Origin: a virus
Taxonomy: Duplodnaviria; Heunggongvirae; Uroviricota; Caudoviricetes
IMG/VR virus record: IMGVR_UViG_2974695582_000001
Span: 46,918 to 110,917 of that record
Strand: one strand, 5' to 3'
DNA length: 64,000 nt
Shown: piece after piece, positions 20,898 through 60,243 of the stretch
Numbering within the stretch: the stretch's first letter is position 1
How the letters are laid out: the number at the start of each line of letters is the position of its first letter
Program-made: the position numbers and the translations under genes
The notes under the pieces: generated by a model
Databases searched by the model: none
Seen by the model: the letters and a program-made list of their open reading frames with translations, nothing else
What the model was told of the DNA's origin: nothing

Positions 20898-20984
20898 GGA
20901 AGGTCAATCCGATTGGCGACGGAACTTGTCTTGAAAACAAGCGAGGTGTGAAAGCCCTTAGGAGTTCGACTCTCCTACCTTCCG
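20898..20984 (+). tRNA. tRNA-Ser (anticodon TGA), type II
   Basis: Acceptor ggaaggt/accttcc (perfect). Anticodon stem cttgt/acaag with loop cttgaaa. Long variable arm. T-arm aggag-ttcgact-ctcct. Confidence 0.6.
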
Positions 20985-21167
20985 CTTTACCCTAAGGAGT
21001 AAAATTGACTGAGACAGAAAATGTCGGTCCTTCTTCCTATCAGCTAGCAATCATCCTTGCGCTTCAGAGCAAGCATGTGTATGCTAATACGGTAGATGAG
21101 AATGAGATTGCAAGACGACGTAAGGCAAGCAAGAGGGCGCGACTACAGCGCAGAGTAAATAGAAGGC

Positions 21168-30415: not shown

Positions 30416-30720
30416 CTTCAGTTCTGGTAAAAATCCAGTCTGAGTTTATACAGAGTTTGGAAGGTAAGCCGGTTCGATTCCGGCAGACTGATGGGTCAGG
30501 GCGCGGTTCGAGTCCGCTATATAAATATGGGTGCAAATAGGGTAGCTCCCGCCGAGTCAGGTTCGAATCCTGGCACTCTGTATAAAGCTTACAAGACACG
30601 GGGGCTTGGCCCGTCCTCCAATCATGAGTCTTGGGTCTCAGTCCAATCGAGATTTAGAGTTAACGGGCTTGCCAGGGGTAGCTTGGTTTCGACTTTGCTG
30701 GATGACATATGAACGCAACC
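30416..30720 (+). other. cluster of degenerate tRNA fragments / T-arm-like hairpins (no intact cloverleaf)
   Basis: Four GGTTCGA(A/T/G)TCC T-arm hairpins, at 30470, 30497, 30560 and about 30690. One has a perfect 7-bp acceptor-like pairing (cagtctg/cagactg) but only about 25 nt between acceptor and T-arm. Confidence 0.4.
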
Positions 30721-31148: not shown

Positions 31149-31595
31149 CAGGCAGGGTCGAAACCTGCTAAGGTATAATCAAGAGGTCAGGCAGTCGGAC
31201 AAGGCTTAGGCGGGTGAGAGTAGTTCAAGCGGTGGTAACTTAAATGCCCACTTAATGATGCTCAACAAACCGGTGGGATGCGAGTGGACTAGTCCTGACC
31301 TCTTAAGCTTCAATCTGTGGATAACGAAAGGGGTCCGGCGTTCTGTGAACTGGCAGTCGGGTAGCCTGGCATGATACAATAAGCCTCTAGCGGGGCTAGT
31401 CACCCAAGAGTAAAGTTCATTGAGGGTGAGCAGATTGAAACCTCGGTTGCGAGAGGGCCAACGGGTATGCTAAGGTGGTGTACAACACCAAAGCACAAAG
31501 GAGATAGGAGCACCAATTAAATGGGTGCTGTGTATCGCAACCAAGCTTCCTTCGTAAGCTGTAATGTAGTAAACAAAAACACGAAGGGTATTAAA

Positions 31596-32483
31596 ATGGG
31601 TTACATTGTTTTCGCTAGCATCTTTATCCTTATTGGACTGATTGCTTTTGGAGTCAGCTTCGCTGCACGAAATGAGCCGGGGGTTCGTAAGGGTGCATAT
31701 GGTGTAGTTGCGGGAATGTTTGTACTGCTTCTGGTTACAACTGCTTTCAATTCTGTTACTAGTGTCGGTGCTCGTAGTGTTGGTATTCAGACCGCTTTTG
31801 GTCGATACCAGGGAACGCTTGACAATGGTCTTCAGATTGTTGCTCCGTGGTCCGAGCATGAGGATTTCTCTACTCGAATGCAGTACCTTGACCTTGACGG
31901 AGAAAAGTGGAGTGATGGTGCTCCGGTAACTTTTAGCGACGGTGGTTCTGGTGTTGTGTTCGCTACTCCTCGTTGGGAGATTAGCGAGAATGGTGCTGGT
32001 GACCTCTGGAAGAAGTACAAGAACTTTGATGCTGTTCGTGACCAGCTCGTTAAGTCTTCCGCTAAGGATTCTTTCCGTGCAGTCATGACTGACTACAGCC
32101 CGAATGAGGCTCGTGCGAAGGTGCGTGAGGTTACTGCTAAGGTGAAGGATGACCTTCAGAGTACCCTTGGCAAGTACGGTATCAAGGTTGACTCCATTAG
32201 CATTCGTGACATCGGTCTGAACAAGCGTGCTCAGGATTCTCTTGACAAGGTCGTAGAGGCTAAGAACAAGATTGAGCGTGCAAAGGCAGAGCAGGAGCAG
32301 GCCAAGATTGAGGCTGAGACTGTGAAGATTCGCGAGAAGAGTGGTCAGCTTACTCCTGAGGCTCTTGCTAACAGGTGTCTTGACATCATGGACAAGTGGA
32401 GTAAGAACAACAACGGTACTGCTCCCGCTGCTGGCTTCGGCTGTGGTAGTGTGGGTGTTCCGTTCACTGTCACCAACAAGTGA
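31596..32483 (+). CDS. SPFH/Band-7 (prohibitin/HflK-like) domain membrane protein
   Basis: N-terminal TM helix. SPFH core VGIQTAFGRYQGTLDNGLQIVAPW. Ala/Glu-rich coiled coil. Confidence 0.7.
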   Translation: MGYIVFASIFILIGLIAFGVSFAARNEPGVRKGAYGVVAGMFVLLLVTTAFNSVTSVGARSVGIQTAFGRYQGTLDNGLQIVAPWSEHEDFSTRMQYLDLDGEKWSDGAPVTFSDGGSGVVFATPRWEISENGAGDLWKKYKNFDAVRDQLVKSSAKDSFRAVMTDYSPNEARAKVREVTAKVKDDLQSTLGKYGIKVDSISIRDIGLNKRAQDSLDKVVEAKNKIERAKAEQEQAKIEAETVKIREKSGQLTPEALANRCLDIMDKWSKNNNGTAPAAGFGCGSVGVPFTVTNK

Positions 32484-32531
32484 CGGGTGCGGGCTTCGGC
32501 CCGCAAGCTTATTACTAACGAGGGAGTTGAA

Positions 32532-32825
32532 ATGGCTACCGGTAAGGAACGCGGCTTTAAGGACTGGCACGGAAGTAAGGGTTTCCGTCGTAGCGCTCGT
32601 AATTACACTGAGCCTGACGAAATTACTCGCTCTCCTTCTAAGCCCAAGAACACTAAGAAGTGGTGTAAGGGTGTTGTAGGACGTAAGCACACGCTTGCTC
32701 TTTACAACAAGTACACCTTTACTCACAACTACAAGTGCCTGAAGTGCGGAAAGGAATTCTGGGGTAAGCTTAACCTGGACAATTTCGATATGGTTGAAAT
32801 GACCTGGGAACAGGTCAATGGCTGA
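32532..32825 (+). CDS. hypothetical zinc-ribbon protein
   Basis: ATG after GAGGGAG. Contains CKG...CLKCG. Confidence 0.45.
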   Translation: MATGKERGFKDWHGSKGFRRSARNYTEPDEITRSPSKPKNTKKWCKGVVGRKHTLALYNKYTFTHNYKCLKCGKEFWGKLNLDNFDMVEMTWEQVNG

Positions 32826-32904
32826 TTTCCTAGTTGACTAGTTGGACATGGATTTCCTCCCAAGATATAATGGTTATACAATCCATCAAAGTTGGGAGGA
32901 AATT

Positions 32905-33321
32905 ATGAGCGATACTTTCCTAGAACAAATGGGATTTAAGTTCATCTCCGACCTTTTGACGGAAATCCGAGATGGCCAAAAGAGATTGGAGGATAAAATG
33001 GCAGACCTACAGACTGAAGTTGTAGAACTTCGTGAAGCAGTTTCAGGCGTTTCAGCACGTGTTGACGCTCTCGTTGGTCCACTCACGGACGCCGTTAGAG
33101 AGGCACAGGATGCTCTAGCAGCCGAAAGAGAGGCAGCAGCTAATCTTGCAGCAGCGGAGGACCAGGAGGACGTTGAGCAGAACCAGGCTCTTGCAGACGC
33201 CAAGGCAGCGACAGACGCAGCCCTAGCAAATGCTCAGCAGGCCGCTGATGAAATCAGTGCCGAGACTGACCGCCTTAATGCAGTTGCTCAGCCAACAACC
33301 CCAGAAGAGCCTCAGGCTTGA
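32905..33321 (+). CDS. hypothetical coiled-coil protein (Ala/Gln/Glu-rich)
   Basis: ATG after GGAGGAAA. Low-complexity coiled coil. Confidence 0.45.
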   Translation: MSDTFLEQMGFKFISDLLTEIRDGQKRLEDKMADLQTEVVELREAVSGVSARVDALVGPLTDAVREAQDALAAEREAAANLAAAEDQEDVEQNQALADAKAATDAALANAQQAADEISAETDRLNAVAQPTTPEEPQA

Positions 33322-35014: not shown

Positions 35015-35034
35015 GATAAAGCCCTTCGGGGCAT

Positions 35035-35124
35035 GGAAGTGTGGCTGAGTCCGGTTTAAGGCGCTTCACTGCTAATGAAGTGGTTTCGTAAAGAGGCCCG
35101 CAGGTTCGAATCCTGTCACTTCCG
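35035..35124 (+). tRNA. tRNA-Ser (anticodon GCT), type II
   Basis: Acceptor ggaagtg/cacttcc. Anticodon stem cttca/tgaag with loop ctgctaa. Long variable arm. T-arm gcagg-ttcgaat-cctgt. Confidence 0.6.
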
Positions 35125-39468: not shown

Positions 39469-39489
39469 CACCAAGCCCTTCGGGGCAAT

Positions 39490-50922: not shown

Positions 50923-51086
50923 AGAAGCCAAAGCCACTAGGAAAGGGAAACTACAGAGTTTGCCCTACTTGCGGAGGCCAAGGCGTTAAGGCTAATATGC
51001 GTAAGTATCCAAAGAGTCCAACAAATGATGCTGTCGTTTGGGAAGACTGCAAAACTTGCAAGACTGTTGGTTGGATTGAGGCTTGA
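50919..51086 (+). CDS. DnaJ-type zinc-finger mini-protein
   Basis: ATGA overlap. Contains CPTCGGQG...CKTCKTVG. Confidence 0.45.
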   Translation: MKKPKPLGKGNYRVCPTCGGQGVKANMRKYPKSPTNDAVVWEDCKTCKTVGWIEA

Positions 51087-51112
51087 CAGCCCTGGTCTGA
51101 CTGTGTTACAGT
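51084..51112 (+). promoter_or_regulatory. promoter TTGACA-N17-TACAGT driving a Y RNA plus tRNA-Gly
   Basis: -35 at 51084-51089. -10 at 51107-51112. The Y-RNA motif begins about 10 nt downstream. Confidence 0.45.
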
Positions 51113-51121
51113 AGATATATC

Positions 51122-51224
51122 GGGTCGGACGGATAGGGTTATCTAACAATCAATTGATGATGAGCCTTCGGGCAACCCTGCGGCGGGTATAGCCGCATCT
51201 CCCTTCCTCAACATATCCGATGTA
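51122..51224 (+). ncRNA. Y RNA-like ncRNA, locus 5
   Basis: atCGGGTCGGACGGATAGGGTTATCTAACAATCAATTGATGatgag resembles hY4 GGUCCGAUGGUAGUGGGUUAUC and hY1 ...AAUUGAUUG. Has an internal gcc-ttcg-ggc hairpin. 3' ACATATCCGATG pairs with the 5' TCGGA. Confidence 0.55.
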
Positions 51225-51227
51225 TTT

Positions 51228-51298
51228 GCGGGTGTAGTTTAATGGTAGAACAACAGACTTCCACTCTGTTAGCGGGGGTTCGATTCCCCCTACCCGCT
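51228..51298 (+). tRNA. tRNA-Gly (anticodon TCC)
   Basis: Acceptor gcgggtg/tacccgc. D tagtttaatggtagaac. Anticodon stem acaga/tctgt with loop cttccac. T-arm ggggg-ttcgatt-ccccc. Confidence 0.6.
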
Positions 51299-51310
51299 CG
51301 AAACGAATGT

Positions 51311-51345
51311 CCCCGCTGGTAAAAACTGGCGGGGCTTCGTTGTTT
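51311..51345 (+). terminator. Rho-independent terminator
   Basis: CCCCGCtggtaaaaactgGCGGGGcttcgttgtttc. Confidence 0.5.
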
Positions 51346-51363
51346 CTATGGTAAGATGGAGTC

Positions 51364-51561
51364 ATGGAAGAAATCGTATCCTACAGCTTTGCTGTAGACA
51401 TCTACAAGAATGATTCTGGAACCTTCACCTATGGTGTCTTCCAGGAGATTGAGTCAGATGAGGATGACGAGCTACAGTTGCTTGAGACTGGTGAAGCTGA
51501 TACACTTGCTGAAGCAGCCGAGATTGCTGGTCGTAGCATCAAGACATTGTTCGTCGTCTGA
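51364..51561 (+). CDS. hypothetical acidic protein
   Basis: 65-aa ORF. Confidence 0.4.
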   Translation: MEEIVSYSFAVDIYKNDSGTFTYGVFQEIESDEDDELQLLETGEADTLAEAAEIAGRSIKTLFVV

Positions 51562-51604
51562 ATTTTATGGCAAATTTTGACGAGGGTTCGTAAAGGGCCT
51601 TCTA

Positions 51605-51676
51605 TCCCCCTTAGTGTAATTGGCAGCACGACTGTCTTTGGAACAGTTAGTTCGAGTTCGAGTCTCGCCGGGGGAG
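51605..51676 (+). tRNA. tRNA-Gln (anticodon TTG)
   Basis: Acceptor tccccct/cggggga. D gtgt-aattggca-gcac. Anticodon stem actgt/acagt with loop ctttgga. T-loop ttcgagt. Confidence 0.5.
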
Positions 51677-51700
51677 CAACCATAACAAAAGGAGAAGTTA

Positions 51701-51937
51701 ATGGTTATCGCAGCAACTATCATTTGGATTATCGGAATGGTAATGGTTCTTGTCTTCGGATTTGCAGTTGCCCTTACTGGGGAACTTCATGAAGAGGAAC
51801 CTCTTGATGGGCTTTTCAAGAGTTGGGGCGGAACGAGGTTTTACAGTCTGTACTTCCTTATCCTGATTCTTTGTCTGCCCATTTGGCCACTCATCCTGGT
51901 TTCTATCTGGATTGTTGCCCTGGTTAGGGGATGGTAA
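51701..51937 (+). CDS. hypothetical membrane protein
   Basis: 78 aa with 2-3 TM helices. Confidence 0.45.
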   Translation: MVIAATIIWIIGMVMVLVFGFAVALTGELHEEEPLDGLFKSWGGTRFYSLYFLILILCLPIWPLILVSIWIVALVRGW

Positions 51938-51938
51938 G

Positions 51939-52154
51939 ATGATTTTCCTGTGGATTTATCTGGCCGGGTTGACGTTCTGCTTGCTCGGTGGTACAGTTAC
52001 TGCATTCATTGAGAAGCGTAGGTTCAAGGAAGACAGGGTTTCTGCTACCGCATGGGCTTCAATTGCTCTTTATTCTATCTGGTGGCCGTTCATTGTCGTT
52101 CTTAATATTATCTGTCTTCCATTCGAATTCTTCGACAGAAGGAATGGTCGATAA
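51939..52154 (+). CDS. hypothetical membrane protein
   Basis: ATG after AGGGGATGG. 71 aa with two TM helices. Confidence 0.4.
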   Translation: MIFLWIYLAGLTFCLLGGTVTAFIEKRRFKEDRVSATAWASIALYSIWWPFIVVLNIICLPFEFFDRRNGR

Positions 52155-52204
52155 GATTTCGGGGAGTTTACTCCCCAAGCTTCCATTACAAAAAGGAGAA
52201 GATA

Positions 52205-52663
52205 ATGGATATTCTGTTCTGGATTTGGGTAGTACCGGCAGGATTTTTCACCGCTCTGTTCTTGCTGATTGTACTATTCGCATCACTGATTAACATTCAG
52301 ACAGGAGCGGTGGTTGGTGGACTTGCAATTGGTGTTTTCGGTCCGCCTGTTGCTGTAGTTCTTGGCGCTCTTTGGCCAGTTACTTGGCCTCTCTTCTCTC
52401 TGTTTGGTCGTCTCGATGACAAGCGAACTGAGAAGAGGAATGCTGAATATGAGAAGCGTCTTTCTGAAGGGGAGGGTTATGGTAAGCTGATGAAGATTAC
52501 TGAAGTTTACTCTCACCTTGAGGACAAGGGTTATCTCGGTTCGGTGGTCAAGGTTATTCAGTGGAATGACCCCGCCAAGGAAAAGGCTTACGTCGAGTTT
52601 GTTGACCAGAGCATTCGTTCTGGCCGATTCTATTGGTCGCATGACATGATGGAAGAGGTCTGA
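52205..52663 (+). CDS. hypothetical membrane protein
   Basis: 152 aa. N-terminal TM helices plus a soluble C-terminus. Confidence 0.45.
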   Translation: MDILFWIWVVPAGFFTALFLLIVLFASLINIQTGAVVGGLAIGVFGPPVAVVLGALWPVTWPLFSLFGRLDDKRTEKRNAEYEKRLSEGEGYGKLMKITEVYSHLEDKGYLGSVVKVIQWNDPAKEKAYVEFVDQSIRSGRFYWSHDMMEEV

Positions 52664-52705
52664 TACAGTTGGGGCGAAAGCCCCAAGCTTTCGTAAAGGA
52701 GGACA

Positions 52706-53017
52706 TTGATGAATGTGCTGATTGGTCTTGCGATTCTGGCTGTCATCCTGTACAGTTATGAACGCAACCGAGGAGTCCAGGCGGCTCGAAAGTCTCGCGA
52801 GAGGTTGGAAGCTCTGAAGAAGGGTGAGAATTATGGCCGGTGGTTTACCATCGCTAGCTCCCTTGACTCAGACCGAGTGTACTATGGTAAGGTAATCAGG
52901 TGGGAAGTTCCTGAAGACCCTAATGATGTTGCCGAACTGTACTGCGTAGAAGGTTCTAACCCTGATGGCTGGACTCCTTCGTTTGTTTGGCCGAAGGATG
53001 ACCTTATTCTTCAGTAG
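52706..53017 (+). CDS. hypothetical membrane-anchored protein
   Basis: 103 aa after AAAGGAGG. Confidence 0.45.
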   Translation: MMNVLIGLAILAVILYSYERNRGVQAARKSRERLEALKKGENYGRWFTIASSLDSDRVYYGKVIRWEVPEDPNDVAELYCVEGSNPDGWTPSFVWPKDDLILQ

Positions 53018-53058
53018 TATCTCTGCCCGAAAGGGCAAGCTTTCAAAAAGGAGGAAGT

Positions 53059-53259
53059 ATGATTGCGCTTCTCATGACTATTTATCTCATCGGATTCCTT
53101 GGCATGGCAGGCTTTATTCTGTTCGCCTTGGGTGTTGGTGCGATGTTCGGTAGTTTTCCCACATCAGATGTTTGGAAGGCTTTCGCTTATGCTTCCGTCT
53201 GGCCAGTTCTTATTGTGTGGGGTTTTTGCAATTTCGTTATTTACAAGATTAGGAACTAA
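53059..53259 (+). CDS. hypothetical membrane protein
   Basis: 66 aa after AAAGGAGG. Confidence 0.45.
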   Translation: MIALLMTIYLIGFLGMAGFILFALGVGAMFGSFPTSDVWKAFAYASVWPVLIVWGFCNFVIYKIRN

Positions 53260-53874
53260 ATGGATTTCAATCAACTGCGTGAAATGATTCCTCTTGCAAC
53301 TGGAGAGAAACTTCACGTAATGGAAATGAAGCCATATCCAAACATTACCCTCGCTATGCCGGGTAGGCATCAGAATGATACTACTCCAATTGGCGGGGAT
53401 TTTGTTGTTATGGTGGACGATGATTCAATGGGTTGGGTCAGGCATCAGTTCACTCACGGTGACCTTTGGGATGACCTTGAAAAGAAGATGCAAACGGACC
53501 TTGAAGGTGCTACAGTGCTTATGCGGGACTACGCAAAGGTGGTTCGTGGCTCTGACCCTGTAATGCCTGGTTGGGATTTTCAGCGGGGTGGTTATGATGG
53601 AGAGGGCTCAGACCCTTGGGAAACTACCATGCATCCTCAGACTTTTCTCTACGCAGTTCAGTGTCTTGCTGTAGCTGAGCATCGTCGGTACTGGCAGCAT
53701 GAGTGTCAGGGTGGTGGAAGGTACTTGCCAGCACGGTTCTCTATGGGTATCATAGAACGCAAGTGGACAGCAGCAGACGCTAAGTCTTATCAGTATCGTG
53801 GTCGTCAAGGTCTTGAGAATCTGATTAAGGAGAAGGGTCGTCCTACGCCACTTAAGAAGTTTGCTGAGTCGTAA
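53260..53874 (+). CDS. hypothetical protein
   Basis: 204-aa ORF. Confidence 0.5.
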   Translation: MDFNQLREMIPLATGEKLHVMEMKPYPNITLAMPGRHQNDTTPIGGDFVVMVDDDSMGWVRHQFTHGDLWDDLEKKMQTDLEGATVLMRDYAKVVRGSDPVMPGWDFQRGGYDGEGSDPWETTMHPQTFLYAVQCLAVAEHRRYWQHECQGGGRYLPARFSMGIIERKWTAADAKSYQYRGRQGLENLIKEKGRPTPLKKFAES

Positions 53875-53931
53875 AACCCGGCAAAATTTGGGGGCCTTTC
53901 GTAAAGGCTCTCAAGCTTGTATACTAGACCT

Positions 53932-54195
53932 ATGAGAGAAATTTGCGAAGAACTAGCGCACTGGTTTTTGGTGCATGACTATAAATGGAAGTTTGATTAT
54001 GGCCACGGAAATCCGGATGCGGATGACATTGAGGCTGTAGTTAACCGAGCAATGCAATTGCTGAGTGTTGAAGATACTGATACCAGACTTGAAGTTGGTC
54101 GTCTTATCTTCATGAAGAATGCTGAGCTGGGTTTGGTAGACATCTTTGTCCACGCTGGAACAATTGGAGAAAATGATGAAGACAGCAACGTTTGA
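53932..54195 (+). CDS. hypothetical protein
   Basis: 87 aa. Confidence 0.4.
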   Translation: MREICEELAHWFLVHDYKWKFDYGHGNPDADDIEAVVNRAMQLLSVEDTDTRLEVGRLIFMKNAELGLVDIFVHAGTIGENDEDSNV

Positions 54196-54598
54196 TTACA
54201 CTGAGATGGCCGTAGTTGACAGCAGCTTTATTGACGCTGTTTACTACAACGACAAGACGAGTGAACTTGCGGTAAGTATGCTTAACGGAGACACGCATTT
54301 CTATGGCGCTGTCCCCGCCCGCACCTTCTACAGCCTTGTTGATGGTCCATCCGCTGGTGCTGCTTACAACCGTGAGGTTAAGGACCAGTTCACGAACCTT
54401 GGCAACGGGCCAGTTCATGAGGTACAGTTTATTTCATACGAGCCTGGCGTTAACAAGCGCTTCCAGGTTCATGCTACAGTAAAGTATCAGCAGTTCTTTG
54501 ACGCTGAGACTGCTGCGGACGCTGCCAAGCAGATGGAGAAGTACATGGCTCCAAACTATGGTAACGTATCAATCACGGAGGTAAAGGAAATTGGGTGA
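54173..54598 (+). CDS. KTSC-domain protein
   Basis: SSFIDAVYYNDKTSELAVSMLNGDTHFYGAVPARTFYSLVDGPSAGAAYN matches the KTSC (lysyl-tRNA synthetase C-terminal-like) signature. Confidence 0.55.
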   Translation: MMKTATFDYTEMAVVDSSFIDAVYYNDKTSELAVSMLNGDTHFYGAVPARTFYSLVDGPSAGAAYNREVKDQFTNLGNGPVHEVQFISYEPGVNKRFQVHATVKYQQFFDAETAADAAKQMEKYMAPNYGNVSITEVKEIG

Positions 54599-54902
54599 CG
54601 TTCGTAAGGTCCGTACACTAACGGAACTTCACGAAATTATGAACAACCATGATAAGGTTGTTCTTGACTTGGCTGCACCTTCTTGGTGTGTTCCTTGTCA
54701 GAGACTTTCCCCGCATTTTAAGAAGGCTGCGGAAAAGTCGGACGCTGCTTTTGTTGAGGTAGATATTGAGGATGCTGAAGAGGATATTCTCAACACCTAT
54801 CCAACTCAGTCGGTTCCTACGGTTCTCCTCTTGCAGAAGGGTGAACCAACGGTTACACTGAAGGGACGAACTTCGGTCGCACTGCTTAAGGAGATTGCAT
54901 AA
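54591..54902 (+). CDS. thioredoxin
   Basis: WCVPC active site in a roughly 100-aa thioredoxin-fold context. Confidence 0.8.
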   Translation: MGDVRKVRTLTELHEIMNNHDKVVLDLAAPSWCVPCQRLSPHFKKAAEKSDAAFVEVDIEDAEEDILNTYPTQSVPTVLLLQKGEPTVTLKGRTSVALLKEIA

Positions 54903-54954
54903 TCTCGGCGGGTATCGTAAGGTACCCGCAAGCTTCCAACAAAGGAGAAATGAC

Positions 54955-55134
54955 ATGACCGCTCAGGACCTTGGTGCTACTCCTCAGCAGCTCATTAATA
55001 AGGCTGAAGGAATGCTCAATCAGATTTCGGAATATCCCACAGAGCGTGATGAGCCTCGAATTATTAAGGCTCGTGCTCTTATCGAACTGGCTCAAGCTAA
55101 GATTGCTCTAAAGGAATTCCACAGGGCTCGATAA
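54955..55134 (+). CDS. hypothetical small protein
   Basis: 59 aa after AAAGGAGAAA. Confidence 0.4.
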   Translation: MTAQDLGATPQQLINKAEGMLNQISEYPTERDEPRIIKARALIELAQAKIALKEFHRAR

Positions 55135-55191
55135 AGAGCCGGGCCGAAAGGCCCAAGCTTCCTACCAACTAAACAGAAAAGGATTAGGAAA

Positions 55192-55428
55192 ATGGTTGAG
55201 ATTACCGCTGAGCAGGAGAAGCAGAGCCGGGATTTCGTTAAGGCTGCGACTCTCCTTGCCGTTCATGTTCACGCTGTGAATGAGGCAATTGCTCTTAACG
55301 ATATGGACCTTCTTAAGGGCAGTGTTGAGTTTGGCACTGAGTTCTCTCAGAAGATTCTTGCTCAGGTTCCTGAGGACATTCAGATGGAAGTTATGCTCGA
55401 AGTTCTCGCGGGTGCGATGGGTCTCTGA
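55192..55428 (+). CDS. hypothetical protein
   Basis: 78-aa ORF after AGGAAA. Confidence 0.45.
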   Translation: MVEITAEQEKQSRDFVKAATLLAVHVHAVNEAIALNDMDLLKGSVEFGTEFSQKILAQVPEDIQMEVMLEVLAGAMGL

Positions 55429-55485
55429 TGTACAATTAGGCTAGGGGAGAAATCCCCTAGCTTTTTTGTATTGGAGGAAGCTTGT

Positions 55486-55710
55486 ATGTCCATTGAATCA
55501 TGGGAGAATGAAGGAGGTTTTATCCAGATGACTCATTCATACATTGATGGAATGGGTTTTGAAGAGATGCACGAGGGTAGCCAGCAAGATTGTCTAACTA
55601 AGCAGTGTCGTAGGGAGCGACGGTATTACCGCAGCATCCCGTCAATCGACCCGTGGCCCGAGGGTTCAGGACCCTACGGAACTGACCCGTGGATGCAGGA
55701 AGGTATCTGA
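55486..55710 (+). CDS. hypothetical protein
   Basis: ATG after GGAGGAAG. 74 aa. Confidence 0.4.
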   Translation: MSIESWENEGGFIQMTHSYIDGMGFEEMHEGSQQDCLTKQCRRERRYYRSIPSIDPWPEGSGPYGTDPWMQEGI

Positions 55711-55714
55711 GAAA

Positions 55715-56209
55715 ATGCATGTCGTACCTAAATTTGAAGGTGACCATAGATTCCTCAGCAACTTTTACCACGCGCCTACACGTTTTGTTTTGGCCGATGA
55801 CATCATAGTCATGCCGACTGGCGAACACGCTTTCCAGGCTGCCAAGTGCAACGCGATGCTTGACAAGTCGGAAAAGTTGGAGTACGTTCGTCGTGTTGCA
55901 ACTGCTGAAACTCCCGGCATCGCCAAGCAGGAAGGGCAGAAGGTCAAGATTGACCTTGACCATTGGGAGTCGGTTCGTGTAGATTGTATGCGTGAAGTTG
56001 TCTTCCAAAAGTTCTTGCAGCATCCTGACTTAAGAACACAGCTTCTTAAAACAGGCGATGCTATGCTTGTGGAAGGAAATACCTGGGGTGATAAATTCTG
56101 GGGAAGAGTAGATGGCAAGGGTTTTAATAAGCTCGGTGTCATTTTGATGGAAGTGCGTGGATACTGGCTTTGGCAGACACGCAGAAATAGCCCGGAGATG
56201 GGGTCATGA
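55715..56209 (+). CDS. NADAR-domain protein (YbiA-like; putative ADP-ribose processing / DNA-ADP-ribose glycohydrolase)
   Basis: FLSNFY, EHAFQAAK, W..VR...M, LLKTGDAMLVE, DKFWGRVDGKGFNKLGVILMEVR: canonical NADAR/DUF1768 signature. Confidence 0.8.
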   Translation: MHVVPKFEGDHRFLSNFYHAPTRFVLADDIIVMPTGEHAFQAAKCNAMLDKSEKLEYVRRVATAETPGIAKQEGQKVKIDLDHWESVRVDCMREVVFQKFLQHPDLRTQLLKTGDAMLVEGNTWGDKFWGRVDGKGFNKLGVILMEVRGYWLWQTRRNSPEMGS

Positions 56210-56367
56210 GCGACAGACAACCTAATTTTGCTGTGCGAGATGAAGTAGTGTATCTGGGAATGCTTGGTATTGTAAGACGAGTTCTTCTTGGCAAGAATAT
56301 CAGATACGTTGTGGAATTTGAGCATGGCAGACAGACAATTCCCGAAGGAAAGTTGAAGAGGGCATGA
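56206..56367 (+). CDS. hypothetical small protein
   Basis: 53 aa. ATGA overlap. Confidence 0.35.
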   Translation: MSDRQPNFAVRDEVVYLGMLGIVRRVLLGKNIRYVVEFEHGRQTIPEGKLKRA

Positions 56368-56489
56368 GTCAGAGGTATCGTAAGGCTCAGCGTCTTATTG
56401 CATCCCGCCGTTATTTTCGGCGGGTTCGTAATAGATGGCGCAAATATGGATGTTCGTGTGGAAAGCACAACATGAGAGGCAATAAGTAA
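56364..56489 (+). CDS. hypothetical small basic Cys-containing peptide
   Basis: 41 aa. ATGA overlap. Confidence 0.25.
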   Translation: MSQRYRKAQRLIASRRYFRRVRNRWRKYGCSCGKHNMRGNK

Positions 56490-56491
56490 AT

Positions 56492-56650
56492 ATGGAACCG
56501 AAATACAAGGTCGGGCAAAGAGTAAAGTATGACAATCGAACAGGCATCATTCGTAAGGTCTGGACTACAGACCCCAATGAGACTAAGTATACTGTTGACT
56601 TTTTGCCTGGTAAGCACATTCTGAAGGAAACTCAGATTACAAAGGCTTAA
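56492..56650 (+). CDS. hypothetical small protein (KOW-like)
   Basis: 52-aa ORF. Confidence 0.35.
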   Translation: MEPKYKVGQRVKYDNRTGIIRKVWTTDPNETKYTVDFLPGKHILKETQITKA

Positions 56651-56668
56651 AAATCTTGTTGGGAGGGG

Positions 56669-56697
56669 TTGACAACTTCTCCCAAGCTCGTTAAACT
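56669..56697 (+). promoter_or_regulatory. promoter TTGACA-N17-TAAACT
   Basis: Lies within a gggaggGGTTGACAACTTctccc hairpin context. Confidence 0.45.
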
Positions 56698-56773
56698 AGA
56701 AAAAGAATAAATAATTAATAGCAAAGAGAAGAATATCTAATAACTAAACAATTAGGATAACTGGGGATAAATA

Positions 56774-56962
56774 ATGAGTCTATCAGTAATCGTGATTCTG
56801 GCTATTGCTCTTGTCATCTTCATCACCAAGGACGGAATGAATAAGATTCATGCGTTCATCGCTGTTCTTTTTGGTGTATATCTTGGTGGAACAGAATGGG
56901 GTGGCAACCTTAAGGGTTGGACAGACAGTTTTGCGGAAATGATTTCTCAGATTCAATTCTGA
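56774..56962 (+). CDS. hypothetical membrane protein
   Basis: 62 aa with two TM helices. Confidence 0.45.
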   Translation: MSLSVIVILAIALVIFITKDGMNKIHAFIAVLFGVYLGGTEWGGNLKGWTDSFAEMISQIQF

Positions 56963-57037
56963 GAAAATTATGGCAGATTTTCGGGAGGGTTCGTAAAGGA
57001 CCCTCCTAAGCTTTTGTACCTAACAAAGGATAATAAC

Positions 57038-57286
57038 ATGAATGAAACTGTTACTCTCGACAAGGAATTGGTTGTCGATATGTTTTCCGCTCTCCTTGCA
57101 ACTAAGTCTTTGCTTGAGTCTATCTTTGCAGGAGAAAGGCCCGGCCCTGAGCTTGGTCAGGCTGTGGTAAACACGATTCAGCAGGCTCTTGACAGCACCC
57201 CTGAGGATGTGAGAGGGTTGGTCATCGAAGCAATCGTCAAGAACATCGGTAGTGACAACCTGCTTGAAACTGTTGAGCCTGAGTGA
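57038..57286 (+). CDS. hypothetical protein
   Basis: ATG after AAAGGA. 82 aa. Confidence 0.45.
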   Translation: MNETVTLDKELVVDMFSALLATKSLLESIFAGERPGPELGQAVVNTIQQALDSTPEDVRGLVIEAIVKNIGSDNLLETVEPE

Positions 57287-57335
57287 TACAGTTGGCCTTC
57301 GGGCCAAGCTTCCAATTAGGAAAAGGAGAGATAAG

Positions 57336-57983
57336 ATGCGTGAGTATTCAAAGACCGATAACCTTTACAAGCGCAACCCGAAGAAGAAGTCTGAGCTGCT
57401 TGTTGGAGAGTACACCCGTCCTGAGTTCGCTCTTATCAATTCTTGGTGGGTTACTGAGAAGGTTGACGGTACCAACGTACGTCTTTGGTTTGACAAGGAC
57501 GAGAACACCAATTATGGTGGTCGCACAGACAATGCACAGTTCAGCCCGGTTCAGCAAGAGTTTATGTCTAACCTTGTTGATTCTATCAAGGAGGATGCGG
57601 TAAGTCTTATTCATCGTCATGGATTGAATGAGCTGCTTATCTTCGGTGAGCTTTATGGACCGAAGATTCTTTCTGGCGGGAATTATTCTGACAGTCTAGA
57701 CTTTCGAGCGTTTGACATGATGGTCAATAACCGGGTATGGTTGAATCCTGATTCGGTGAACCAGAATGCGTCAGACCTTGGTCTGAAGATGGTTCCTAAT
57801 TTTGGAATGATGACCACTGCTCAGATTTTCTTGATGGTTGCGGGTGGCTTTAAGTCCACCTTTGCGAAGAACCCTGAGTTTGATGCTGAGGGTGTAATTG
57901 CTCAACCTCCAGTTAATCTTTATGACCAGCGTGGTGAGCGTGTTAAGTTCAAGTTGAAGACAAAGGATTTGAGGCACGTCTAA
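57336..57983 (+). CDS. RNA ligase Rnl2-like nucleotidyltransferase domain protein
   Basis: N-terminal YSKTDNLY...WVTEKVDGTNVRLWF parallels T4 Rnl2 YSSLENHY...REKIHGTNFSL, with a KxDG motif I. 215 aa (no C-terminal domain). Confidence 0.5.
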   Translation: MREYSKTDNLYKRNPKKKSELLVGEYTRPEFALINSWWVTEKVDGTNVRLWFDKDENTNYGGRTDNAQFSPVQQEFMSNLVDSIKEDAVSLIHRHGLNELLIFGELYGPKILSGGNYSDSLDFRAFDMMVNNRVWLNPDSVNQNASDLGLKMVPNFGMMTTAQIFLMVAGGFKSTFAKNPEFDAEGVIAQPPVNLYDQRGERVKFKLKTKDLRHV

Positions 57984-58031
57984 GGTCTTAATGCCCCGAA
58001 AGGGGCAAGCTTCCCAACTGATGGAGAGATA

Positions 58032-58304
58032 ATGAATTACATTCAGGAAATGCTTGATGAGCTTTCCGAAACTTTGCCGGGTCTGCCTGATGAGCTTCTT
58101 GACCTCTACGCTTTGCTTGTGGCTGTCAAGGGTGATAAGGTGACTCTGAAGGATGTGCATGAGGCTTGGGCCATCTGGAAGAATCGTATTCGACCCGACC
58201 ATAAGTCACTCATTCCATTTGATGAGCTGACTTTTGAAGTGCAAGAGCTTGACCGTAAGTATGCTGATGGAATCGCAAAGGTGAGTGAGAATTACAATGG
58301 CTGA
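58032..58304 (+). CDS. hypothetical protein
   Basis: 90-aa ORF. Confidence 0.45.
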   Translation: MNYIQEMLDELSETLPGLPDELLDLYALLVAVKGDKVTLKDVHEAWAIWKNRIRPDHKSLIPFDELTFEVQELDRKYADGIAKVSENYNG

Positions 58305-58503
58305 GATGCCCGAAGAGATGAAGAATCTCGGTGTTCTTATCGCAGTATCCAAGATTATTGAGGTCTTCAGTGACCTTGTTCAGGCTGCTGACAAGGCTAG
58401 CCCTGAAATTAAGGCTTTCGTAAAGCCGTTCGAGAATGAAGTTGACAAGACTGCAAAGGCTCTTGAGTCTCTGTTTGGCAAGGATTTTCTCGAAGGTAAG
58501 TGA
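58285..58503 (+). CDS. hypothetical protein
   Basis: 72-aa ORF. Confidence 0.4.
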   Translation: MRITMAEMPEEMKNLGVLIAVSKIIEVFSDLVQAADKASPEIKAFVKPFENEVDKTAKALESLFGKDFLEGK

Positions 58504-58547
58504 AATTCTGGCGGGTTCGTAAGAGCCTGCCAAGCTTAGGAGGAATC

Positions 58548-58751
58548 ATGGAATCTAACTATAAGTATGAGATTACCGTAATGGAATCTGAAAGGGGTTG
58601 GGGTCGGAATTCTTGGACAGAAGAATTCGATACCCCAGAAAAGGCACAGGAACGCATTGATGAAATCAATGGTCGTAATAAGCCTGGTCCTGCCCCTGAC
58701 TATTACATGCAGGCGTATGCAGAGATTCGTGCCGTCCTGAAGACAGCTTGA
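58548..58751 (+). CDS. hypothetical protein
   Basis: ATG after AGGAGGAA. 67 aa. Confidence 0.45.
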   Translation: MESNYKYEITVMESERGWGRNSWTEEFDTPEKAQERIDEINGRNKPGPAPDYYMQAYAEIRAVLKTA

Positions 58752-58776
58752 CACAACCATGGAAGGTTGGTAGTAT
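58748..58776 (+). promoter_or_regulatory. promoter TTGACA-N17-TAGTAT, leaderless onto the next ORF
   Basis: The ATG at 58784 is 8 nt after the -10 element. Confidence 0.45.
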
Positions 58777-58783
58777 CTGAATC

Positions 58784-58963
58784 ATGAGATACGAAGTGAA
58801 AGAAGAGGTTACAAAGGATGGCCGAAAGGCAATAGTCAATTGGGTCATCTGGGATAACATCGAAGGACGCGTTTTTGCCCGGTTTAAGGACAAGGAGACG
58901 CCTGACAGCATCCTTGCAAAGTGGTATGCTGCTCAAGAGGCAGCCGAAGCAAAGGGAGAGTAA
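58784..58963 (+). CDS. hypothetical small protein (probably leaderless)
   Basis: 59-aa ORF. Confidence 0.4.
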   Translation: MRYEVKEEVTKDGRKAIVNWVIWDNIEGRVFARFKDKETPDSILAKWYAAQEAAEAKGE

Positions 58964-58966
58964 AGC

Positions 58967-59347
58967 ATGATTGAGTACAACACTACATGTAATGTAAACG
59001 GAACTAACATTCTTTGTGATTTGAAGTATGACAAGGCGAATCCGGCCGAAGTCAGCTTTACATTCCATGTTAACGAGAACTCTCCCGAATGGGTCTTTTC
59101 CAGGGACCTTCTTGGTGAGGTAATGTCTAGTCGTGGTAAGGCTGGTCAGGGTGACGTTCTTCTTTATGACCACGGTGACGCAGTTAGCTTGCTTTTGCGT
59201 TCACCTGAGGGAAAGGGTCTCGCTATTTTCCAGCGAGAGGTCATTAAGGAATTCGTTGATGAGATGTACAATGAAGTTCCAAAGCATGATGATGTCCTTC
59301 CTCTCGATGATGACAGCTTGCAGGAATGGCTAGAGGGTTTGGTTTAA
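58967..59347 (+). CDS. hypothetical protein
   Basis: 126-aa ORF. Confidence 0.5.
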   Translation: MIEYNTTCNVNGTNILCDLKYDKANPAEVSFTFHVNENSPEWVFSRDLLGEVMSSRGKAGQGDVLLYDHGDAVSLLLRSPEGKGLAIFQREVIKEFVDEMYNEVPKHDDVLPLDDDSLQEWLEGLV

Positions 59348-59365
59348 TAAGCTCTTGGGGGTACA

Positions 59366-59551
59366 ATGAACTCAGGAGGAAATATGTATCTGGATTTCAG
59401 CATGAACCCCGGCCTAGATGTTTGGCTAGGCATTCGTCCACCTGAGTGGGACGAAGATGATTTCGATGATTGGGAGGACGAAGAGTTCAAAGTAAACCAG
59501 AAGCGTCGAATCATTCGGATTCGGAAGTCAAATTTCCGGCGAGAATTTTAG
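59366..59551 (+). CDS. hypothetical acidic protein
   Basis: 61-aa ORF. Confidence 0.4.
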   Translation: MNSGGNMYLDFSMNPGLDVWLGIRPPEWDEDDFDDWEDEEFKVNQKRRIIRIRKSNFRREF

Positions 59552-59613
59552 AGGGTTCGTAAAGGACTCTTTTGCCCCTTCGGGGGCAAGCTTACTAGGG
59601 TTGAGGTGAAGGG

Positions 59614-59642
59614 TTGACAACAGGTCCCCGCTCCCCTAGAGT
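59614..59642 (+). promoter_or_regulatory. promoter TTGACA-N17-TAGAGT
   Basis: Streptomyces-type -10 TAGAGT. Confidence 0.45.
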
Positions 59643-59657
59643 ATGTGAGGTAGGCGC

Positions 59658-59843
59658 ATGAAGATTGAAGAGGGAGACTACCGTTTCAAGGATGGTGTGG
59701 ACATGCGCATCGTCGGGTTTGAGCGGCGGGTCTTGACAACCTACGTAAAGTTTGTTCCACTACATAACGGCAAGGTGTGCGGTCCAGTACGGGTCATCAC
59801 TCTTGAGTACGCGAGAGAGCGACTGGAGAGGTTGACAGGCTAG
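59658..59843 (+). CDS. hypothetical protein
   Basis: 61-aa ORF. Confidence 0.4.
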   Translation: MKIEEGDYRFKDGVDMRIVGFERRVLTTYVKFVPLHNGKVCGPVRVITLEYARERLERLTG

Positions 59844-59892
59844 ACAGACTCAGGTAAGGTAGTAACCACAACGACAGCCAAGGAGGCAAAAA

Positions 59893-60243
59893 ATGAAGGT
59901 TTCGACTCGCGTTTCTCGCAACGGTGGCATCTCCATTAAGAAGCTTGGCCGTGACAATCAGTCGCACAAGGCTGGTACGGTGGTCATGCGTAACGTGCGC
60001 TTCAACGGCTCCATCCTGGGTGACCTGATTGAGGAGTCCAAGAACCGCTACGTGCCTCGCGTCAAGTCCAGCGTTGGTTTCTCTTCTGATGGTGACCTGG
60101 TGGTTACTCAGGGTATCTCTGACTGGGGTCAGGCTCGTTACATCAAGTCTCTTGGTGGTTACTACAACATCAAGAACGGTCAGCGTGTCGAGTCTGCTGC
60201 TTACGTCTACATCGTTGGCTCCAAGATTTACTACACCAACTGA
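59893..60243 (+). CDS. hypothetical protein
   Basis: 116-aa ORF after AAGGAGG. Confidence 0.5.
   Translation: MKVSTRVSRNGGISIKKLGRDNQSHKAGTVVMRNVRFNGSILGDLIEESKNRYVPRVKSSVGFSSDGDLVVTQGISDWGQARYIKSLGGYYNIKNGQRVESAAYVYIVGSKIYYTN

Follow-up and report, generated by a model that had tools for sequence, protein, structure and literature searches.

A conserved TCGTAA hairpin cap, probably a recognition site, at gene and tRNA junctions of Streptomyces phage Comrade

A subset of the hairpins in Streptomyces phage Comrade (cluster BE2, Gilsonvirus; genome of 129 kb) carries the cap TCGTAA, which is probably a hitherto undescribed recognition site. Our preferred reading, to which we assign a probability of roughly 0.4, is that the capped hairpins are recognized as RNA on the sense strand. 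Cluster BE Streptomyces phages are large and lytic, with genomes of ~130 kb that carry more than 30 tRNAs and a tmRNA, and to our knowledge their gene regulation has hardly been studied. In the genome announcements and other literature that we searched there was no mention of intergenic signals in these phages, no description of such a capped hairpin and no transcriptome for the cluster. An element that persists across genera, singles out a definite set of gene and tRNA junctions and is found again next to the putative origin offers a handle on how the long co-directional transcripts of cluster BE phages are sorted, processed or timed, and points to a putative reader protein.

Six capped hairpins within a larger hairpin set

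Comrade carries a general set of intergenic stem-loops, with stems of 6-10 bp, GAAA or UUCG caps in the ordinary members and a near-invariant AAGCTT directly 3' of most of them; ordinary hairpins also stand 2-3 nt 5' of the expected RNase P cleavage sites at tRNA 5' ends. The six capped hairpins are a subset of this set. Their positions in the window, which is the whole 64,000-nucleotide stretch analysed, are given below with related features of the same region.

Site A, 51561..51602, + strand: upstream element AATTTTATGGCAAATTTTGAC, then hairpin GAGGGUUC-GUAAA-GGGCCUUC at 51582-51602, its 3' end 2 nt from tRNA-Gln (51605); fold -10.9 kcal/mol, matrix 41 bits, covariance model 34.9 bits.
Site B, 53874..53914, + strand: AACCCGGCAAAATTTG, then hairpin GGGGGCCUUU-CGU-AAAGGCUCUC in the other register at 53888-53914, followed by AAGCTT, a TATACT -10 box (53920-53925) and the leaderless ATG of gene 193 (53932); -15.2 kcal/mol, matrix 33 bits.
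Site C, 54908..54929, + strand: hairpin GCGGGUAUC-GUAA-GGUACCCGC, followed by AAGCTT, a Shine-Dalgarno sequence and the start of gene 196; -16.9 kcal/mol, matrix 21 bits, covariance model 25.1 bits.
Site D, 56963..57007, + strand: AAAATTATGGCAGATTTTCGG, then hairpin GGGAGGGUUC-GUAAA-GGACCCUCCU at 56983-57007, followed by AAGCTT and gene 203; -18.4 kcal/mol, matrix 40.5 bits, covariance model 41.5 bits.
Site E, 58509..58532, + strand: hairpin UGGCGGGUUC-GUAA-GAGCCUGCCA without the upstream GGCA element, followed by AAGCTT, a Shine-Dalgarno sequence and gene 207; -18.3 kcal/mol, matrix below 12 bits, covariance model 26.7 bits.
Site F, 59534..59572, + strand: CCGGCGAGAATTTTAG, overlapping the end of gene 210, then hairpin AGAGGGUUC-GUAAA-GGACUCUUU at 59550-59572, with an ordinary UUCG hairpin and AAGCTT (59573-59593) directly 3' and a TTGACA-17-TAGAGT promoter (59614-59642) downstream of both; matrix 33 bits.
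tRNA-Ser(GCU) variable arm, 35082..35098, + strand: capped hairpin GGUUUC-GUAAA-GAGGCC; covariance model 17.3 bits, E 0.07.
Stem-less copy of the 10-mer, 52690..52702, + strand: TTCGTAAAGGAGG, just 3' of an ordinary hairpin and AAGCTT, forming the leader and Shine-Dalgarno sequence of gene 190.
Canonical terminator, 55438-55463 followed by TTTTTTG: unlike the capped hairpins in appearance.

The original prediction of a hairpin sub-family with a shared loop held for all six examples, which lie on the + (sense) strand in intergenic DNA or before tRNA-Gln and fold at -9.2 to -18.4 kcal/mol, far more stably than their own shuffles (z of -3.0 to -4.8). The predicted association with start codons is not general: site A abuts tRNA-Gln and site F precedes a second hairpin and a promoter, although where neither a tRNA nor a second hairpin follows, the hairpin lies 16-37 nt from the start codon. 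The 10-mer TTCGTAAAGG occurs five times in the window against 0.12 expected, always on the + strand, always intergenic and always inside 51.5-59.6 kb. A position matrix trained solely on sites from other phages scored five of the six Comrade sites at 21-41 bits (null maximum ~16), and a covariance model whose training set excluded sites C and E recovered all six, every one on the + strand; both match almost nothing else in the 129 kb genome. An excess of the bare 7-mer TTCGTAA (36 vs 6) was dropped as motif evidence because it mostly reflects codon usage, CGT being an in-frame Arg codon before AAx in 28 of 40 coding matches.

Intrinsic terminators were considered and rejected, as the hairpins lack a U-tract and each stem is followed by AAGCUU or a tRNA; a lax T-run rule admits site D alone (AAGCTTTTGT), and terminator-like sites show no enrichment (9 vs 8.4 expected). 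Searches of the window with Rfam returned only tRNAs and the tmRNA at gathering score, and left the hairpins unmatched even at E values up to 5.

Structure and conservation of the cap

A conserved loop on variable stems had been proposed. The apex is indeed conserved and the stems vary by compensation, but half of the proposed loop is paired and covarying. Only the letters TCGTAA are invariant, and in most copies they form a tetraloop (GUAA) or pentaloop (GUAAA) on an invariant closing C-G pair, which rests on U.G and U-A pairs. Minimum-energy folds leave GUAAA unpaired at sites A, D and F and GUAA at sites C and E. Among 22 distinct hairpins in the C-G-closed fold the loop is GUAAA in 18 and GUAA in 4, pair 1 is always C-G, and 97% of apex-anchored pairs are canonical in register, compared with 44-62% for slid partners. 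Opposite the invariant U's, the 3' base either toggles between A and G or changes jointly with the 5' base (U-A to A-U or G-C); at site C, for example, pair 3 has made the compensatory change from U-A to A-U. Six pairs are changed on both sides in the 18 pentaloop copies, and none of 500 shuffles reached the covariation score, so that the suggested alignment and covariance check returned covarying stems beneath a conserved cap. G.U pairs make up 45 of 278 (16%), and the sense RNA is at least as stable as the antisense RNA in 24 of 26 copies.

The core lies at the apex in every hairpin copy, and its letters are unchanged when the register changes to CCCUUU-CGU-AAAGGG, in which CGU rather than GUAAA is unpaired. 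This applies to the example at 53898 (site B), where the predicted core is present but in a different register, as a CGU triloop. CGU or CGUA likewise occupies the loop in Faust, Blueeyedbeauty and BillNye, and the register flips even between orthologs, the type I fold being that of Gilsonvirus and type II that of Faust and Blueeyedbeauty.

Loss of the loop in related phages had been named as the outcome that would count against the idea; instead, seven phages from four genera retain the core at orthologous junctions. Retention is 7/7 at site B (with varying register), 5/5 at site F (the five genomes that cover this junction), 5/6 at A, 6/7 at D, 5/7 at C and 3/6 at E. Orthologs of site A are found in Francob, Gilson, Faust, Blueeyedbeauty and BillNye, and those of site D in Francob, Moab, Gilson, Blueeyedbeauty and contig L041. 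Between relatives the stems differ by compensatory substitutions around a constant apex sequence, whereas the loops of ordinary hairpins at neighbouring junctions drift among the same genomes (GAAA, UUCG, GCAA and others). No single copy is essential, since individual phages have lost the core at individual sites (Moab A, C and E; Faust C and D). Because the core is conserved while ordinary loops drift, a U-tract is lacking and the sense RNA is the more stable, the evidence points to a sequence-specific element and not a generic terminator, as originally argued.

The motif also reaches upstream, to ATTTTC-YGGCA-AATTTT. Its GGCA stands at a fixed 15 nt from the core in Gilsonvirus and Faust and is not conserved as a 4-mer outside them; an AU-rich/GGCA single-stranded segment precedes the core at four of the six window sites (A, B, D and F). 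Besides the leader of gene 190, similar stem-less copies occur in a ribosome-binding-site context in Francob, Moab and BillNye. Further stem-less copies (GGCA, 13 nt, ATCGTAAAGG) lie in the non-coding DnaA-box region of Comrade and Francob, and Karimac, from another subfamily, has them beside its own DnaA-box region, with no hairpin copies in the 12 kb examined.

Candidate readers and alternative explanations

Under the sense-strand RNA reading, the six sites would be hairpins within polycistronic RNA whose cap is recognized by a trans-acting factor, either a phage or host RNA-binding protein or an endoribonuclease. Such a factor might single out some gene and tRNA junctions, whose fate would then differ from that of junctions with GAAA or UUCG hairpins: for example, endonucleolytic processing within the AU-rich segment, a change in stability, or a change in the read-through or translation of the unit downstream. 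We infer both that the reader acts on RNA and what its action would be; our analysis identified no candidate protein for it. The cap in the tRNA-Ser(GCU) variable arm, identical in Francob, counts in favor of RNA, because there an RNA hairpin is certain and a promoter implausible. The register flip counts against a loop-reading factor, which should not tolerate such a change if it reads structure and sequence together. Indeed, the change of register, the stem-less copies and the fixed GGCA distance fit recognition of a linear sequence, possibly in DNA, equally well or better.

The main rival, conceivable if on balance doubtful, is that the element is a bipartite site in duplex DNA (YGGCA / AATTTT, 8-10 nt, TCGTAAAG), serving as a phage-specific promoter or as the site of a DNA-binding protein; a phage protein of this kind would also act at the DnaA-box region. 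The element would then have lodged in the loop as the sole unconstrained part of pre-existing hairpins. Besides the letters kept through register flips and the GGCA held 15 nt from the core, this would account for the tandem stem-less copies that adjoin DnaA boxes in two phage subfamilies and for the orientation of every copy with the genes. Sigma-70-type -35 boxes, including the TTGACA boxes of the early promoters, are also found in hairpin loops of the same genome, with AAGCTT and then a -10 box 3' of them, and in the conserved TATACT promoter of a leaderless gene the core of site B takes the -35 position. That site, however, is the only one with a true TATACT box, downstream of the core; the would-be -10 elsewhere lacks TAnnnT, a sigma-70-family promoter was rejected when the consensus scan did not call the motif (candidate -10 CGTAAA or TAAAGG), and HrdB-type promoters are already frequent in the region (22 vs 9.9 expected by consensus scan). 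Neither the annotation nor Pfam and PHROGs searches of 25 candidate proteins revealed a sigma factor or RNA polymerase, although divergent phage sigma factors can escape profile searches. Moreover, the GGCA spacing is 15 nt at hairpins but 13 nt at stem-less sites, the 4-mer is restricted to Gilsonvirus and Faust, and the upstream half is missing at sites C and E. The 3' half of the core (AGG, GAG, GAA, GGU) varies as pairing with the 5' U's demands, unlike a fixed word, and at site F the core retains a stem of its own despite the ordinary hairpin immediately 3'. Moab lacks a site before tRNA-Gln, so the site is not needed for expression of that tRNA.

An unlikely explanation is that no dedicated reader exists and that UC-GUAA(A)-GR is simply another stable tip, its copies related through duplication or gene conversion. 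GUAA is a GNRA tetraloop and GUAAA a GNRA-like pentaloop; the variable arms of Comrade long-arm tRNAs use GAAA, UUCG and UC-GUAA(A)-GR caps interchangeably; and the core has been exchanged at single sites, with the hairpin kept, for GAAA (Moab C), UUCG (Faust D), CUCG (Faust C) or bare GUAA (Faust E). Copies within one genome are also more alike than orthologs between genomes, as concerted evolution would produce. Yet stability alone leaves unexplained the invariant U at loop position 2 and the 5' U of pair 2, the retention of the letters in a register without a GNRA loop, the upstream element and the stem-less copies, and the persistence of this cap at four junctions across four genera while ordinary caps drift. 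Quite improbable is a pseudo ribosome-binding module, in which UAAAGG(A/G) after an AU-rich tract acts as a Shine-Dalgarno-like sequence, whether as a real site or as a hairpin-sequestered decoy, standby or regulated site. The 10-mer does serve in this way for gene 190 and for genes in Francob, Moab and BillNye, and gene B of Blueeyedbeauty and contig L041, which has no other Shine-Dalgarno sequence, has its start codon 8 nt past AAAGGGG in the hairpin 3' arm. Against this, the GG is variable (AAAGAG, AAAGAA, AAAACC), sites C, D and E have separate Shine-Dalgarno sequences further downstream, site A precedes a tRNA, and the invariant letters are UCGUAA rather than the purine run.

Depending on the reader, the element would be of use in different ways. 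If RNA is read, the capped hairpin would be a compact tag for Streptomyces; if DNA, it would represent a new class of promoter or operator in a host for which orthogonal expression parts are wanted.

Resemblance to known systems

The lambda nut site consists of boxA and a boxB hairpin bound by N, with the loop GAAAA or GAAGA. In both systems a conserved linear element lies a few nucleotides upstream of a short sense-strand hairpin of variable stem; the loop is a GNRA-like pentaloop in lambda and, as GUAAA, in most phage copies of the C-G-closed fold. Inside the Comrade hairpin cluster there is also an unannotated, arginine-rich ORF of 41 residues (56364-56489). It would be a long shot, though the first such system described in an actinobacteriophage, for the capped hairpins and upstream element to form the RNA half of a phage-encoded antitermination or RNA-processing switch like N-boxB, with a small arginine-rich reader such as this ORF and the core re-used in the DnaA-box region. 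Pfam detects no N-like similarity in the ORF; its sole match, to HTH_29, stays below threshold (E 0.022; 15.3 bits, cut-off 28.1). Comrade differs further in having no boxA consensus (CGCUCUUA-like) but ATTTTC-YGGCA-AATTTT upstream, six copies in 8 kb instead of one per operon, one copy that abuts a tRNA, stem-less copies, and the same letters folded with CGU in the loop in other genera.

Processing or stabilizer hairpins of the T7 RNase III type are likewise intergenic, on the sense strand of long co-directional units and without a U-tract, and cleavage may plausibly leave hairpins of either kind at RNA ends. RNase III cuts the T7 sites, which are long irregular duplexes, whereas Comrade has stems of 6-10 bp with GNRA/UNCG caps, AAGCTT after most hairpins and a sequence-specific cap in the sub-family. 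Cluster K mycobacteriophages have start-associated sequences of two sorts: SAS, a word of 13 bp overlapping the ribosome-binding site at 3-8 bp from the start codon, and ESAS, formed by paired inverted repeats of 17 bp. These too are short conserved motifs upstream of many actinobacteriophage genes with a function inferred from position only, but membership was rejected, the Comrade hairpins ending 16-37 nt before a start codon or preceding a tRNA or hairpin, with unrelated sequence. ECF-sigma promoters combine an AAC-type -35 and a CGT-type -10 across a 16-17 bp spacer; CCGGCA-N16-CGTAAA has a matching spacing and a CGT(A) -10, and its copies are gene-oriented. Its -35, however, is not of the AAC type and not conserved across genera, the stem-less spacing differs, neither the annotation nor the 25 candidate proteins include a recognizable cognate sigma factor, and toward its 3' end the '-10' covaries in the manner of paired RNA.

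A mimic of the tRNA anticodon arm, as in the thrS operator, has a stem of at least 5 bp and a loop of 7 nt in which U33 precedes the anticodon triplet and position 37 is a purine. In the second fold type UUCGUAA can be read as U33-CGU-A37-A38, for example in Faust (GACCCU-UUCGUAA-AGGGUC); this drawing is impossible in the fold adopted by five of the six window sites. The loop of the phage tRNA-Thr(CGU) is CUCGUAA.

Occurrence and conservation of the capped hairpins

All six hairpins that the original prediction had placed between 51.5 and 59.6 kb of the window (sites A to F, + strand) are present, and their folds lie well above shuffled controls. Site A precedes tRNA-Gln, and sites B, C, D and E precede genes 193, 196, 203 and 207. 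Over window 51000-60000 the sequence matches that of Streptomyces phage Comrade (NC_048728.1; 129,015 bp; 47% G+C) at 100% identity; Comrade is a Gilsonvirus of the Stanwilliamsviridae, cluster BE2, in which the + strand carries nearly all genes rightwards of 6 kb; window positions equal record positions minus 46,917. The motif TTCGTAAAGG occurs five times, where 0.12 copies are expected, and only in + strand intergenic sequence at 51.5-59.6 kb. A position matrix trained exclusively on sites of other phages was run over the whole Comrade genome. It gave 21-41 bits for sites A, B, C, D and F, where the null maximum was ~16, and the only remaining matches were one coding sequence (19 bits) and one copy at record position 121,602. 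A covariance model whose training set omitted sites C and E recovered both of them among 6/6 sites, all on the + strand.

The bare 7-mer TTCGTAA is also found more often than expected (36 versus 6), but we reject this excess as evidence for the motif, since it mainly reflects Arg-Lys codon usage. In most coding copies CGT is read in frame as Arg and the next codon is AAG or AAC; no other Arg codon is used as often here, and 92% of Lys codons are AAG. No Rfam family was found on the hairpins, either at the gathering score or at E values up to 5. An IMG/VR scan with GGTTCGTAAAGGAC returned two BE-type contigs and scattered single chance matches, and was uninformative because a 14-mer is too short.

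Hairpins were grouped by the gene that follows them in Comrade, Francob, Moab, Gilson, Faust, Blueeyedbeauty and a 125.7 kb IMG/VR contig. The core, an invariant TCGTAA at the hairpin tip, is retained at junctions B (7/7), F (5/5), A (5/6), D (6/7), C (5/7) and E (3/6), while the stems of these orthologous hairpins differ between genomes. In BillNye, which represents a fourth genus, the core precedes tRNA-Gln. Both the predicted conservation of the loop in homologous intergenic regions and the description of a constant tip on variable stems are thus supported. In contrast, ordinary loops at three neighbouring junctions drift among the same genomes (UUUA, UUCG and GCAA at one; GAAA, UUCG and GAAU at another; GAAA, UUG, AUU and GAUU at the third). 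Francob carries the cap at three extra junctions where Comrade has plain hairpins, and the core is singly lost with the hairpin retained at Moab C (GAAA loop) and Faust D (UUCG loop). Neither the motif nor the AAGCTT hairpins described below are mentioned in the BE1 genome announcement, the phage Coruscant paper or the results of full-text literature searches. The element is an undescribed conserved cis-element of phage intergenic regions, which is a familiar kind.

Anatomy of the cap, its registers and its upstream element

Sites A, D and F have stem-UUC-GUAAA-GGA-stem as their minimum-energy fold, and sites C and E have stem-UC-GUAA-G-stem. What had been reported as loop is partly paired stem, and the only invariant letters are T-C-G-T-A-A. 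The first fold was compared in 22 distinct copies taken from six genomes. All of them have C-G as pair 1; pair 2 is U.G (13) or U-A (9), and pair 3 is U-A (11), U.G (8), A-U (2) or G-C (1), while outer stem pairs alternate among G-C, C-G, A-U and G.U. The 'AGG' that follows the invariant letters varies exactly as pairing with two U's permits. In-register pairing holds in 97% of cells for these 22 copies, compared with 44-62% when the 3' partner is slid, and among 18 pentaloop copies six pairs show changes on both sides, with 0/500 shuffles reaching the observed covariation score. The sense RNA is at least as stable as the antisense in 24/26 copies and G.U makes up 16% of pairs; therefore, the hairpin is under selection as sense-strand RNA. 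The same cap is seen in the variable arm of tRNA-Ser(GCU), GGUUUC-GUAAA-GAGGCC, where other long-arm phage tRNAs carry GAAA or UUCG.

The motif is longer than first noted, with ATTTTC-YGGCA-(A/G)A(A)TTTT upstream of the core at sites A, B, D and F and their orthologs. In Gilsonvirus and Faust the start of GGCA is exactly 19 nt ahead of TCGTAA, which leaves 15 nt separating the two; outside Gilsonvirus and the genus of Faust this 4-mer is lost and an ATTTT tract 8-10 nt upstream is retained. An upstream RNA hairpin, GAAAAU...AUUUUC, occurs at Comrade site D only and was rejected as part of the element because it is not conserved.

Several observations complicate recognition of a loop. Site B folds in another register, GCCUUU-CGU-AAAGGC, and this second register (CCCUUU-CGU-AAAGGG), in which GUAAA is not the loop, is found in Faust, Blueeyedbeauty, BillNye, Moab B and Comrade B; at junction B the fold flips between the two registers among close relatives. 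Moreover, GGCA-13 nt-ATCGTAAAGG occurs without any fold in three copies (record 121,495, 121,602 and 121,640, outside the window), which flank canonical terminators and lie at the margin of a putative origin or control region:

Record 121473-122930 (31473-32930 of the right-hand part of the genome, L001; outside the window): 1.4 kb non-coding region with DnaA boxes

Inverted DnaA boxes (TTATCCACA...TGGATAA) are found here together with CGGACAT/ATGTCCG repeats, two canonical terminators and several TTGACA promoters. Francob has the same arrangement, stem-less copies included. The layout differs in Karimac, a phage of another subfamily, whose DnaA-box region contains three or four stem-less copies with the same TCGGACATG after them; no hairpin copies were found within the 12 kb of Karimac examined. 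Loop recognition is further complicated by the tRNA-Ser(GCU) arm described above and by the role of TTCGTAAAGGAGG in ribosome binding, taken up below. The unusual trait of the element is that the same eight letters appear in two hairpin registers and in a stem-less form. Also on the right arm, outside the window, genes 246, 254 and 259 (L001 29378-29878, 34111-34797 and 36136-36693) are three paralogs, all matching PHROG 28435, a family without known function.

Explanations for the conserved core

Having weighed the evidence for and against each explanation, we rank an RNA-level recognition site first, with a probability of roughly 0.4. This reading is supported by covariation inside the former 'loop', by the sense-strand bias, by the constant apical core (with site F keeping its own stem) and by the tRNA-Ser case. 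A site read in DNA, whether promoter, operator or iteron, comes second and is somewhat less probable. In its favour, the core letters are independent of hairpin register, stem-less copies lie inside the origin-like region and the core stands at a fixed linear spacing from GGCA. Against it, this spacing is 15 nt at the hairpin sites and 13 nt at the stem-less ones, GGCA is lost outside two genera, TAnnnT is absent and the 3' half of the core toggles between purines. In addition, the genome annotation contains no RNA polymerase or sigma factor, and neither was found among the 25 proteins searched.

It is improbable that the motif is simply a stable cap without a dedicated reader, as this accounts neither for the invariant U of the loop and the upstream element nor for the contrast between this cap and the drifting loops of ordinary hairpins. 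Least probable is a pseudo ribosome-binding site; gene 190 (52690) has TTCGTAAAGGAGG as its actual leader and Shine-Dalgarno sequence, as do genes in other phages.

More specific candidates were rejected. The core as a -35 box fits site B only, the other sites having no TAnnnT at 16-18 bp, and a promoter on the minus strand lacks conservation, since inspection shows a CATAAT-like box in Comrade sites A and D only. A pseudoknot between the upstream UUUU and loop AAAG was rejected because its third loop would be too short. Mimicry of a tRNA T-arm was rejected because it would place U at position 58, a CsrA-type site by the lack of conservation of GGA, a sigma-54 promoter by the wrong GG-to-GC spacing, and an AdpA box (consensus TGGCSNGWWY) by mismatches at two key positions. 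In addition, neither CsrA nor sigma-54 is known to occur in actinobacteria.

Two open reading frames of the window may be mentioned here. An arginine-rich ORF of 41 residues (MSQRYRKAQRLIASRRYFRRVRNRWRKYGCSCGKHNMRGNK, 56364-56489, +) is unannotated in Comrade and has an annotated small-gene counterpart in Francob, Moab and Faust; it has no Pfam match at curated thresholds, the only match being a weak one to HTH_29 (E 0.022; 15.3 bits versus a cut-off of 28.1). Gene 103 (22499-24115) encodes a Ro60-like RNA-binding protein, and no Y-RNA-like family was found in the whole window at the Rfam gathering score.

The wider class of AAGCTT hairpins

AAGCTT occurs 84 times in the genome, compared with about 35 expected, and ~50 copies lie directly 3' of a G+C-rich hairpin on the transcribed strand (record 48.6-121 kb). 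In the middle region the hairpins are capped by GAAA or UUCG, with a Shine-Dalgarno sequence and start codon after them, whereas those of the right arm carry GGTTGACA in the loop as a -35 box, with TAnnnT 17-18 bp after TTGACA and AAGCT(T) in the spacer. Tetraloop hairpins of the ordinary kind also stand just ahead of tRNA-Tyr, tRNA-Ser(GCU) and tRNA-Val and stop 2-3 nt short of the tRNA 5' end, the same placement as that of site A before tRNA-Gln.

Whole window, including 52177, 52685, 53037, 55155, 57306, 58007, 59588: AAGCTT starts after hairpins, a large family
56661-56697; window 61260 and 63721; record 111384-117023: sigma-70-type promoters with the -35 box in a hairpin loop
29225-29244, 35015-35034, 39470-39489 and other tRNA 5' flanks: tRNA-flanking tetraloop hairpins

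A U-tract is absent from all these hairpins and terminator-like sites show no enrichment, in agreement with the proposal that the capped hairpins are not generic terminators. The AAGCTT-hairpin context and the absent U-tracts place the capped hairpins, as a sequence-specific subset, within a general class of intergenic RNA hairpins that are not terminators; for this class we infer that a role in RNA processing or end protection is probable. Cleavage by RNase P would leave the tRNA-flanking hairpins as the 3' end of the RNA upstream.

The window includes 31 tRNA genes and a tmRNA. Several tRNAs besides tRNA-Tyr, tRNA-Ser(GCU) and tRNA-Val are each preceded by a TTGACA/TAnnnT promoter of their own, which ends 10-12 nt upstream. 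The tRNA at 20898-20985 is tRNA-Sec by Rfam, with a score exactly at the family threshold. tRNA-Ser(cga) (30445-30526), called by ARAGORN and annotated in the record, scores below the Rfam tRNA gathering score and folds poorly, and may be non-functional. In Blueeyedbeauty, the start codon of the gene at junction B directly follows AAGCT. Gene 193 is likely leaderless, with TATACT 6 nt before its ATG (53920-53934). A second gene is likely leaderless from an ATG at 58784, which TTGACA-17-TAGTAT precedes by 7 nt (58748-58786); in the record, gene 208 begins instead with the GTG at 58796.
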